64,000 nt of DNA from a virus (taxonomy: Duplodnaviria; Heunggongvirae; Uroviricota; Caudoviricetes), in the IMG/VR virus record IMGVR_UViG_2721755646_000010; one strand, 5' to 3'. Each line of letters starts with the position of its first letter. Position 1 is the first letter of the stretch. This document shows positions 18,001 to 21,000 of the stretch, piece by piece. The position numbers were made by a program.

Positions 18001-21000
18001 TGTCAGCAGACCCCGATCAGTGTAGTCAGCGTCCAGGTATGCCTCGAAAAAAGCAGTTATCAGTCCCAGGTCTGAATTACCGGGATTAGGGAAAACTTTG
18101 TCAGTGTCGCGTACCAGTTTGTGAAGGTCGCGAATCTCCAGCGGGTCGAGCAGCTTTGTTTTGTGAGAAATGGCCAGGGCAGTAACAGCCGGCAGTTCTT
18201 CCGCCCGTGCTATATGTAATGCCTGAAGTTCTTCCCGTGCAACGTGCGTTACTGGTTTTTCGCTGCCGTGTTGCGCAAGCCAGCGAATGGGCAGCTCCTG
18301 ACCAGAAACCGGCAGGAGCATATTCTCCTCAATCTCCGTCATGTCTTCGCCGTTGACGTTGGTATTGTCAGTACTGGCTGGTTTCTCCTGCACGGAGGGA
18401 GAGGGCGCGATAAATACCATTGTAATGCCATCTTCCCCGCCTTTTTCGTATCGGTTGCAGAATTCGGTATCAAACACGCCTTCAGGTGGAAGGTCATTCA
18501 CAACGGGTAAATGGACGCGAACGGGTTTTTTAAAGTCGTCTTCATCATAATCGTTGTCATCCATTGCGGTAATGCAGCGGGAGATGGCAACAGATAATTT
18601 TTTTGCTGTAGTCCAGTAAAAACCACCTTTAATTCCCAGACGTTTTCTGACTTTGTCATTTTTTGCTTCGCAATATAGCGCAAATTCTTCTTTATCAGTG
18701 CTCATTGATAAACCTCATTACAGATTTAAGGGTGAACAAATCCCTGCCATTGCTGGCATTTTTAATCCGTTGGTATGGTGTTAATATGGCTGGAGGGTTA
18801 TCCAGCCGGTGTTTCGTTATTCAGGTACAGCGATACTTTTTTTACCGGGAGGCATTCACCAGAAATTTTTTGCTCGTCTCTTGCCTGGAGGCAGGATTCT
18901 TTACTGGCATAAATTCCGGTAATCACATTCTGTGATTCACCCGTTATAAGAAAAACCGTCATCATCAGTGCAAATGCTGAAGTCATTGACGTTCTCCGAA
19001 AATACCAAGTTCAAGAAGAGCAATTCGGGAAAGTATGGAATTATCATTGAGCAGATAAGGCTCATATTTCCTCATGTTAATGGCATCTTCAGTAAACTCC
19101 CGGTTACTGAGCAGAACACCAATATCAAAACAACCTTCAGACGTATTAACGTTTGGTAATAACGTTTCCATTATCGCGTCCTCAACAATGAATTTTGTGA
19201 TGCAGTGCCTGGTGCCTCCAGGTGACGTTAACCAGTTAACAATTAACGCCGGATACAGAGAATCCACCCATAACACTGTTTTTGGTTTTAACTGTTCCGC
19301 GTGCGCTTAGCCGCATTCACCGCATCACAAAATTCACTTTAAAAAGGGCGGCAGAGCAGCCACGGAGTAAAACTGATACCGCCAAACGTCACCAGAAAAT
19401 TGATAACAGAGGGCGTTGCAGCGGGGTTGTCACTTAAGCGTATGGTCAACCTGACAACCCGGTGTCCTCAATGGGGAAGGAATAACCCCGCCATACTTAC
19501 CGCCGCGCCATTTCGCGGAGTGCCACAACCGGAAGCGCACGTTCGAAGAAATCTAACGACAAGCCTTCTAAGGGAAAGAGCTTCGCCGTACGCTTTCGCG
19601 TTATGCACTGACTTTTCAGGGAAATATCCTTTCAGTAAACTGTCAGTACCGGATTCTTATCCGTGTCCGGCGCACGACCACACGTGACAGCGTGTTGGTC
19701 TCCATTTTTAACCCAGAACCTCAATGGAGGATAAAATGCCAAACAAAAAAAGAAATCCGCTTATTGAAAAACAGATTGAATGCCTGGTAAATCAACTCAG
19801 GCAATCAGGGTTATTAAAAACTCATTCAGAGTTGAGGCTCACAGAATCAGCATTCGACGATAAATTAAATAATGTCCTTTATAATGGCATTATTGATTTT
19901 AATCGTTCTGTTGGTCGCCGCGGCCCTGCTGGTGTTTCCTTATAATTACCAGTCAATCCAGAGTGGACCGTGTTCAGCGTAAATATAACTGTACACATCC
20001 AGATTATATTTGTGGTCTGTTAAGAACAGGCCGCAAATACATGCCGAAGCTTCCAGTGCAGCGGCTCTGTTACTGAATAACCATGTAGCAACATTCCAGC
20101 GTTTTTCTGCATCCCAGTCTTTCTCAAGGCCTGATACCATGAAGAAACCGTTAGTGTTGCCATCAAATAATTCTGTTTCCAAATTTTTAAGCAATGCCTG
20201 ATGGACTCTTGCCAGGTATTCCGCCGGAATTTCGCCACGAATTCTGATGAGATTGTCATAAACAAACATGTTCCCCGCATATGGCGATTTTTCTTTCTTG
20301 TTTTTTAAACCAGCATCATGAGCAAACTGATCAATTTCTTCTTCCGTTGGTTTCGTATTGATGTTTTGCGCTGTCGTTTCTGCAATTTTATTTGCCACAC
20401 TCTCTGAGTCGTGTTTATTTATAGACGCACAGAAATACAATCCGGTAAACGCATCGCGCACATTACGAGCCATATTATCAGTGTCTTTTTTCGTTACCGA
20501 TTCCAATTCAAGTTCGTTCAGACGATGACGAAGTGTGTGTGCTGCAATCTCCTGGATTGAAGGAGGTAAATCTTTAAATTCCATCGTCAACCTCATCAGT
20601 CAGTGTTTCTGGCTAACCAGCGACGCGCGCCAGCTTCAGTTTTAAACGTTTTGCTTTTGGTATACGTCATCGCGGTGAACGTACCGTCCTGGTTGGGGAA
20701 CACGCCACATACCAGAGATTCGTTGTTGCCAAGATTGAGCGTATCCATGTTGACCTCATTTCCCCTTAACGCCGGGGTAGCGGAACAAAAACCTGCTGCA
20801 TAGTTATTAAAGTTGAACCCTGCCGTCATGTTCTTACGCCTCGGGCTGGCTACTTAACCCCTGACCACTGCCTGGTAACTCGAAGTATTGCCCTGCATTC
20901 TGTGGGGCGGGGTGAGGGAATGAATGAAGTTTAGAAAAACGAACATTTAAGGTCAATGTTTTTTTATCAAAACATTTTAAGCAGGCAGCTGTTACGCCAT

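Follow-up and report, generated by a model that had tools for sequence, protein, structure and literature searches.

A dicF-dicB-ydfD cassette, probably a host cell-division control module, in the defective lambda-like prophage Sp11 of Escherichia coli O157:H7

What is the standing of a dicF-dicB-ydfD cassette, of the type known from the Qin prophage of Escherichia coli K-12, in a phage sequence that otherwise carries a CI/LexA-type repressor and lambda-type structural genes? The question is raised by the virus record IMGVR_UViG_2721755646_000010 (Caudoviricetes), a stretch of 64,000 nucleotides that we refer to as the window. On its minus strand an earlier note, made from the sequence alone, had placed the antisense small RNA (sRNA) DicF together with its terminator, a 62-residue open reading frame (ORF) matching DicB and a small membrane protein in the position of YdfD; the coordinates and strand that it gave for all three elements are correct. 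We consider it highly probable that these genes belong, as one segment, to the early-left (pL-type) operon of the O157:H7 prophage Sp11, that they act to block division of the host, and that they are a known paralogue of the K-12 dicBF operon.

The Rfam covariance model for DicF (RF00039) aligns over its full length (1-52 of 52) to positions 19346-19397 of the minus strand, scoring 75.0 bits where the gathering score is 48 (E = 1e-14), and the 53-nt DicF of K-12 aligns to 19346-19398 with a single substitution, A39G. This substitution converts a U-A pair of the inner stem into a U-G pair and leaves the predicted fold as in K-12. The predicted terminator hairpin is almost as stable as its K-12 counterpart (-15.4 versus -15.9 kcal/mol), and a terminator scan places the inner stem at 19363-19348, followed by CCTTTTT. 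Using RNAduplex, we computed the pairing of DicF with the ribosome-binding region of the ftsZ mRNA (-28 to +25) and obtained -38.5 kcal/mol for both alleles, position 39 being unpaired within an internal loop of the predicted duplex. The ftsZ leader itself is 100% identical in O157:H7, and identical in 5309 of 5424 genomes. No change falls in the 5' half of DicF, the part that serves for xylR in K-12. DicF function therefore looks to have been retained. The approximately 190-nt precursor span shows about four differences from K-12, counted in the alignment, and the leader and precursor region is strongly structured (z = -2.4); in K-12 the corresponding 190-nt RNase III species begins about 137 nt upstream of DicF, and processing involves RNase III as well as RNase E (PMC10448788).

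The alignment to the authentic K-12 genes extends well beyond the sRNA: identity to Qin at the DNA level is 93% over a stretch that begins 280 nt upstream of dicF and reaches into dicB (window 19676-19067). At about codon 35 of dicB the homology breaks, to resume only in the 49 nt past ydfD (18759-18711). The dicB product follows this division. It matches the Pfam family DicB over its entire length (residues 1-62 of 62; 125.5 bits against a cut-off of 27), which bears out the reading of the earlier note, and it is 63% identical to K-12 DicB overall, with 29 identities in the first 35 residues and 10 in the last 27. The N-terminus reads METLLPNVNTSEGC here and MKTLLPNVNTSEGC in K-12. A database search returned 142 DicB relatives, nearly all from E. 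coli, E. albertii, Salmonella and Citrobacter, and when the full-length sequences were aligned we observed two discrete C-terminal types, along with recombinants that join either N-terminal patch to either C-terminus. The K-12 type, which we call type A, ends in ...ERELLNKICIVSMLARLRLMPKGCAQ, and the type found here, type B, in ...EPYLLNDNSILSRIALLELGIFGERQ; the latter is kept across E. coli, Salmonella and Citrobacter. A hydrophobic, heptad-like pattern, LLNxxxI(L/V)SxxAxLxL, is common to both. All 19 invariant columns of a 33-sequence DicB alignment are present in the protein from the window, as they must be by construction, the alignment being led by this protein.

The distribution of the differences bears on function. 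In K-12 DicB the N-terminal ~14 residues are essential both for activity and for the binding of MinC, residue 2 tolerates mutation but not deletion, and the last 8 residues are dispensable (Yang et al. 2016, PMC4967827). Thirteen of the 14 essential residues are identical here, the exception being K2E, and the most diverged part of the protein is its tail, including the last 8 residues. An AlphaFold model of only moderate confidence (predicted local distance difference test score of 72) describes a small protein made of helices that extend to residue 55, flexible at the N-terminus and disordered in the last 4-7 residues; a profile search of the PDB with DicB gave no match, and the protein has no solved structure. 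Because the essential N-terminus is kept and the diverged tail is dispensable in K-12, DicB function is likely to be retained and we expect this allele to be active.

The third gene encodes a YdfD homologue, with 56.3 bits against the Pfam family DUF1482 (cut-off 25) and 45% identity to K-12 YdfD; Cys32 and Cys45 both align with cysteines of the K-12 protein. The assignment to the YdfD position made in the earlier note is therefore sound, while for its description as a membrane protein we find only a hydrophobic N-terminus of 15 residues (residues 1-15, Kyte-Doolittle 1.89). The dicB stop and ydfD start overlap in a 4-nt ATGA, exactly as in K-12. As judged from the alignments, the Qin-like DNA of the cassette is confined to the leader, dicF, the spacer and about 35 codons of dicB, and the remainder of dicB together with ydfD is a different, widespread allele.

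Comparison with sequenced genomes identifies the source. Window positions 16800-22100 match the left end of Sp11 of E. coli O157:H7 Sakai with 99.98% identity over 5301 bp, the sole mismatch, at 18177, lying within the recE remnant. Sakai Sp11, whose left-end genes are ECs_2209-ECs_2217, has identical ORFs for DicB, YdfD and CI; ECs_2214 (annotated as cell division inhibition protein) and ECs_2215 correspond to dicB and ydfD, and two pseudogenes, ECs_2216 for an exonuclease and ECs_2217 for an integrase, to the genes that follow. Around the cassette, 801 bp are a 100% match to loci of E. coli O157:H7 genomes that carry the annotation 'dicB / DUF1482 family protein', and strain 180-PT54 is identical to the window from 12000 to 30000. 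Given 100% identity over 801 bp and 99.98% over 5301 bp to annotated O157:H7 loci, chance is excluded, and by this identity the source of the cassette is the defective lambda-like prophage Sp11 of E. coli O157:H7. We take Sp11 of Sakai to be probably part of CP-933O of strain EDL933. That the prophage is defective follows from the truncation and fusion of recE and int: a deletion (window 16928-18705) joined the 5' third of recE, which encodes exonuclease VIII, to the 3' part of int and took out the remaining recE, xis and the 5' end of int, whereas in intact relatives xis and int come after a recE of 2.4 kb.

Sp11 terminates in a truncated ydfJ beside ydfI (window 62753-64000), and in K-12 the late-gene side of Qin borders ydfJ-ydfI with the same arrangement and orientation. 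Since Sp11 is integrated at ydfJ like Qin, it is the positional counterpart of Qin in O157, and a far better preserved one: unlike Qin, it has kept full replication, lysis, head and tail modules. The two prophages have in common the gene order ydfA-like ... dicF - dicB - ydfD - recE/ydfE - int (in K-12, the operon ydfABC-dicF-dicB-ydfDE; b1571-b1577), a DicF with a difference of 1 nt, an ATGA in which dicB and ydfD overlap, the chromosomal site at ydfJ/ydfI and, further upstream, homologous DNA over ydfA (20786-20605, 88%). They differ in that K-12 has ydfB and ydfC where Sp11 has a 216-residue ORF and an antisense ORF of 73 residues, and in their repressors, DicA being a protein of 135 residues without a cleavage domain and that of Sp11 a 212-residue protein with helix-turn-helix and S24 domains.

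The earlier note had called the cassette Qin-type and regarded it as embedded in a prophage of another character. The kinship with Qin is confirmed, but the cassette is not a foreign insert. Isolated phages with a 98% identical cI have the order cI - ydfA-like - ... - dicF - dicB - ydfD - recE - xis - int, and in phage 813R8, one with such a cI, it reads cro / cI - ... - ydfC - dicF - dicB - ydfD - exoVIII - xis. This shared order in phages of the same cI, together with the location of Sp11 at the Qin site, rules out a foreign insertion, and on gene order the cassette is a normal part of the early-left operon in this phage family. Lambda Kil and Rac KilR are likewise small early-left products, which block FtsZ-ring formation upon prophage derepression. 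They occupy the same place as the cassette, between the immunity region and the recombination and int genes, but have no sequence relationship to it, and Kil acts on FtsZ/ZipA directly, whereas DicB acts via MinC and DicF on the ftsZ mRNA.

The coordinates of the operon and of its candidate control sites are collected in Table 1.

Table 1. Features of the Sp11 early-left region in the window
Feature	Position	Strand	Evidence or remarks
recE'-'int fusion ORF, 414 residues	17461..18705	-	Pfam Exonuc_VIII on residues 57-189; both pseudogenes in RefSeq
49-nt stretch between ydfD and recE/ydfE start	18711..18759	-	96% identity to K-12; weak hairpin 18745-18758
ydfD-like gene (DUF1482), 62 residues	18798..18986	-	Pfam PF07358; Sakai ECs_2215
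dicB, 62 residues, type B allele	18983..19171	-	Pfam DicB PF05358; Sakai ECs_2214
dicF-dicB spacer, 169 nt	19172..19340	-	two substitutions relative to K-12; dicB Shine-Dalgarno GAGGA 19179-19183
DicF intrinsic terminator	19341..19383	-	hairpin GGCGGUA..UGCCGCC (19347-19383) and U-run (19341-19345)
DicF sRNA, mature 53-nt form	19346..19398	-	Rfam RF00039 and alignment to K-12 b1574
untranslated leader with DicF precursor region	19399..19676	-	93% identity to K-12 Qin over window 19676-19067
216-residue ORF, phrog_2151	19946..20596	-	PHROG match, E = 1.9e-147
ydfA-like gene (DUF1391), first of the operon	20596..20829	-	Pfam DUF1391 102 bits; 88% identity to K-12 YdfA
candidate pL-type promoter and operator	20928..20974	-	-35 TTGACC 20951-20956, spacing 17, -10 TAAACT 20928-20933
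CI-like repressor, 212 residues, intact ORF	21041..21679	-	Pfam Peptidase_S24 48.5 bits and HTH_3
second exact palindrome copy	21679..21696		cI-cro intergenic region, to the A of the cI ATG

The genes are co-oriented from the CI-like repressor (21041-21679) through the recE remnant. For the ydfA-like gene, RefSeq uses an internal ATG at 20748 as the start. The 216-residue ORF that follows has no Pfam match and no similarity to YdfB or YdfC. Between it and the DicF leader lies the antisense ORF of 73 residues (19724-19945, plus strand; phrog_4274), likewise without a Pfam match, which overlaps the place held by ydfC in K-12.

A CI/LexA-type repressor had been noticed in the prophage, and its domains, helix-turn-helix and Peptidase_S24, support that description. 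The ORF is identical in Sakai and is 98% identical, over the full length, to the 'repressor protein cI' of phages vB_EcoS-813R8 and 640R1; RefSeq annotates just the C-terminal 112 residues (ECs_2209 / WP_001416688.1). An 18-bp palindrome, TGTTTTGATAAAAAAACA, at 20957-20974 abuts the -35 element of the candidate pL promoter, between the repressor stop and the ydfA-like gene. The motif TGTTTT-N6-AAAACA has only two exact matches in the 64 kb, this one and that at 21679-21696, and from their positions we read the two palindromes as the putative left and right operators (OL and OR) of a single repressor. When up to two mismatches are allowed, the palindrome is not enriched in the 64-kb window (7 found, 3.5 expected), and the inverted partner that covers the -10 element (20929-20947) is imperfect and weak, so that we regard just the two exact copies as convincing. 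The cI ATG is without a Shine-Dalgarno sequence and the putative operator palindrome ends on the A of this ATG, which suggests a leaderless cI mRNA, as for lambda cI.

Extending the biochemistry established for K-12 to the gene identities, gene order, conservation and RNA pairing found here, we propose the following working for the Sp11 cassette. Transcription would start in the interval that separates the ydfA-like gene from the gene for the CI-like repressor, and would be off while the repressor occupies the 18-bp palindrome beside the -35 element. Upon derepression, a polycistronic RNA would run across the ydfA-like gene, the 216-residue ORF and the structured leader, from which RNase III and RNase E would excise DicF, its 3' end being set by its own intrinsic terminator; for this step we draw on the K-12 experiments and on the conservation of the region. 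DicF would then pair with the ribosome-binding region of the ftsZ mRNA, as in the computed duplex, and lower FtsZ synthesis, and its unchanged 5' end could pair with other known targets. Read-through of the terminator would yield DicB, which would bind MinC and bring the complex to ZipA at midcell, where the FtsZ ring would be dismantled; in K-12, DicB acting through MinC also protects against lambda and other ManYZ-dependent phages, whose entry it blocks (PMC6832061). The translationally coupled YdfD homologue would be a lysis protein, K-12 YdfD reportedly acting on IspG by inhibition and causing lysis that requires ongoing cell division (PMC8835842). The net effect would be a block of host division, and possibly the exclusion of other phages, whenever the early-left operon is derepressed, analogous to the effect of lambda Kil.

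Several observations weigh against this account, most of them concerning its control. The candidate promoter is a 9/12 consensus match, from a scan that was not enriched for such matches (5 found versus 6.2 expected in shuffled sequences), and there is one exact operator per region only; lambdoid phages usually have two or three. At the expected cleavage site the CI-like repressor reads Ala-Ala-Ser, where LexA-type proteins have Ala-Gly, and with Ala-Ser in place of Ala-Gly a RecA-dependent induction is not assured. Asadulghani et al. (2009) found that Sp11 is unable to excise and saw no induction of it in Sakai, and they listed its repressor as 'disrupted', which leaves doubt about the manner in which this copy is repressed and induced, if it is at all. 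A true disruption of the repressor appears unlikely, given an intact ORF that is the same in Sakai and that isolated phages carry at full length; the discrepancy with the published description probably reflects the short RefSeq gene model. Finally, with 10 of 27 residues identical in the C-terminus of DicB and 45% identity in YdfD, the binding of MinC and ZipA and the inhibition of IspG are extrapolated from K-12.

How widely the cassette is kept is relevant to what it may be for. Among 5426 complete E. coli genomes, dicF occurs in 3822 (70%), with up to 6 copies per genome, and for the 58-nt dicF sequence of this allele the best match is at least 99% identical in 492 records. The 801-bp cassette region is present at a coverage of at least 80% in 1018 of the 5426 genomes, in 398 of them with an identity of at least 99%. 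Furthermore, 38 deposited phage records carry dicF/dicB, for example OV696610.1 (Tritos), LR597641.1 (mEp460_ev081) and ON470619.1. Balasubramanian et al. (2016, PMC5069750) described several dicF/dicBF copies in different lambdoid prophages of the O157:H7 strains Sakai and EDL933, named CP-933O, M and P among them and stated that no sequenced phage had the cassette, a statement that is revised by the 38 phage records. A 2021 review (PMC7873438) counts four dicF copies in strains of enterohaemorrhagic E. coli (EHEC), in which, at low oxygen, DicF is an activator of pchA and a repressor of stx2A. The cassette is thus a known and already catalogued paralogue of the dicBF operon of K-12 Qin. One further copy stands in the tandem neighbour of Sp11: Sp12 of Sakai (ECs_2284/ECs_2285) has a second dicF-dicB-ydfD-recE-xis-int block, in an early region beyond the window, and its alleles are of the K-12 type: the DicF is identical to that of K-12, the DicB has a C-terminus of type A and the YdfD resembles the K-12 protein. 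Both DicB/YdfD types therefore coexist in the Sakai genome.

Among the alternatives, the one that survives best concerns the purpose of the cassette rather than its working. The same molecules, acting in the same way, may have been selected for a benefit to the host, namely superinfection exclusion, with DicB stopping phage DNA from entering through ManYZ, and virulence or metabolic regulation by DicF acting on pchA, stx2, xylR, pykA and manX, and not for a division block during the lytic cycle of the phage. The MinC-dependent protection against ManYZ-dependent phages in K-12 and the low-oxygen effects of DicF on pchA and stx2A in EHEC, both cited above, speak for such a role, as does the retention of the cassette in prophages that can no longer excise and the presence of up to 6 dicF copies in one genome. 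However, the cassette is also found in isolated phages, and its place in an early-left operon beside recE-xis-int, which is the position of lambda kil, fits a role in the lytic cycle. We regard the host-benefit explanation as possible but unlikely to be the principal one, and stress that the two roles are not mutually exclusive.

A second alternative is that the Sp11 genes have diverged in function, the type-B DicB and the 45% identical YdfD having changed partners and no longer acting on MinC/ZipA or IspG, so that the Sp11 and Sp12 copies would be non-redundant. The DNA homology to K-12, which ends at dicB codon 35 and is back only after ydfD, is in line with this, as are the two discrete C-terminal types with their recombinants and the co-residence of both types in Sakai. 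Nevertheless, the essential N-terminus of DicB is conserved, its C-terminal tail is dispensable in K-12 and the hydrophobic pattern is common to both types; YdfD has kept its cysteine pair and hydrophobic N-terminus; and lambdoid phages commonly replace alleles in mosaic fashion, which requires no functional change. We therefore consider such a divergence improbable. The same doubt attaches to a more specific proposal, that the Sp11 set (DicF with G39, type-B DicB and YdfD) is a specialised paralogue with, for instance, another exclusion spectrum or partner, under a repressor that is responsive to antirepressors and not to RecA. With its Ala-Ser in place of Ala-Gly, the repressor could answer antirepressors of co-resident prophages instead of RecA; its K-12 counterpart DicA is without a cleavage site and is relieved by the antirepressor Rem. 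Candidate antirepressors in the window are an Ant gene (6039-6917) and a RefSeq 'phage antirepressor N-terminal domain-containing protein' at ~36115-36684. Were this improbable proposal true, an antirepressor-responsive CI would tie host cell division to cross-talk between prophages.

The least probable explanation, that the copy in Sp11 is decaying and silent, a relic without expression or activity, and that the DicF and DicB effects in O157 come from other copies such as the K-12-type one in Sp12, appeals to the defectiveness of Sp11 (recE and int truncated and fused, no excision, a repressor described as disrupted) and to the second cassette with K-12-type alleles in Sakai Sp12, but it sits poorly with three intact genes, a 190-nt precursor and terminator almost as in K-12, an A39G substitution that keeps the pairing, the retention of the 801 bp in the 1018 genomes (398 at the higher identity) and the conservation of type-B DicB across genera.

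Beyond the cassette, Sp11 carries cro, ydaT, the replication genes O/P, hok/sok, a protein of the DUF1133 family annotated in Sakai as 'phage antiterminator', transfer RNAs (tRNAs) and lysis genes. Its structural genes (~38771-59800) are of lambda type, as had been noted earlier, with terminase, portal, protease, capsid, D, E, tail, J and Lom; tail-fibre and NleG-type genes are also present. The hok/sok locus, a type I toxin-antitoxin system of the early-right region, lies at 26607-26932 (Rfam sok, 113.5 bits, with a Hok/Gef coding sequence) and parallels hokD of Qin. Upstream of the late and lysis region are prophage tRNAs, called in RefSeq as tRNA-Ile (anticodon CAT) and tRNA-Arg (TCT), and the sRNA STnc100 (104.7 bits), at 31075-31324 and 32097-32269.

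The neighbouring Sp12-like prophage contributes its late end as the first ~16.6 kb of the window, a part that holds tail genes, nleG and insertion sequence elements; the tail genes at 1-11000 accordingly belong to this neighbour and not to Sp11. Sp11 and Sp12 stand in tandem at the Qin locus. Within the Sp12-like tail block, directly 3' of the tail gene L (4547-5245), we observed a module resembling immI of phage P22 (5265-6917). It consists of an ORF for an Arc-like ribbon-helix-helix protein (5265-5516, minus strand), the antisense RNA sar (Rfam, 5971-6037, minus strand, 66.7 bits against 43) and an Ant-type antirepressor with the domains BRO-N and P22_AR_C (6039-6917, plus strand). The module is the exact break point of homology to strain 180-PT54 and Sakai.

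Cassettes of this kind have been studied since about 1990, and the locus matters little beyond annotation. In the O157 RefSeq records examined (NZ_CP015832.1, NZ_CP033605.1 and NC_002695.2) dicF is not annotated as a noncoding RNA despite its wide occurrence, which is a modest annotation point. The type-B DicB and YdfD alleles and the control of the Sp11 copy have not been explicitly characterised in the literature. Type-B DicB/YdfD is a widespread second type, and work on DicF and DicB in EHEC should not take the four copies as equivalent.

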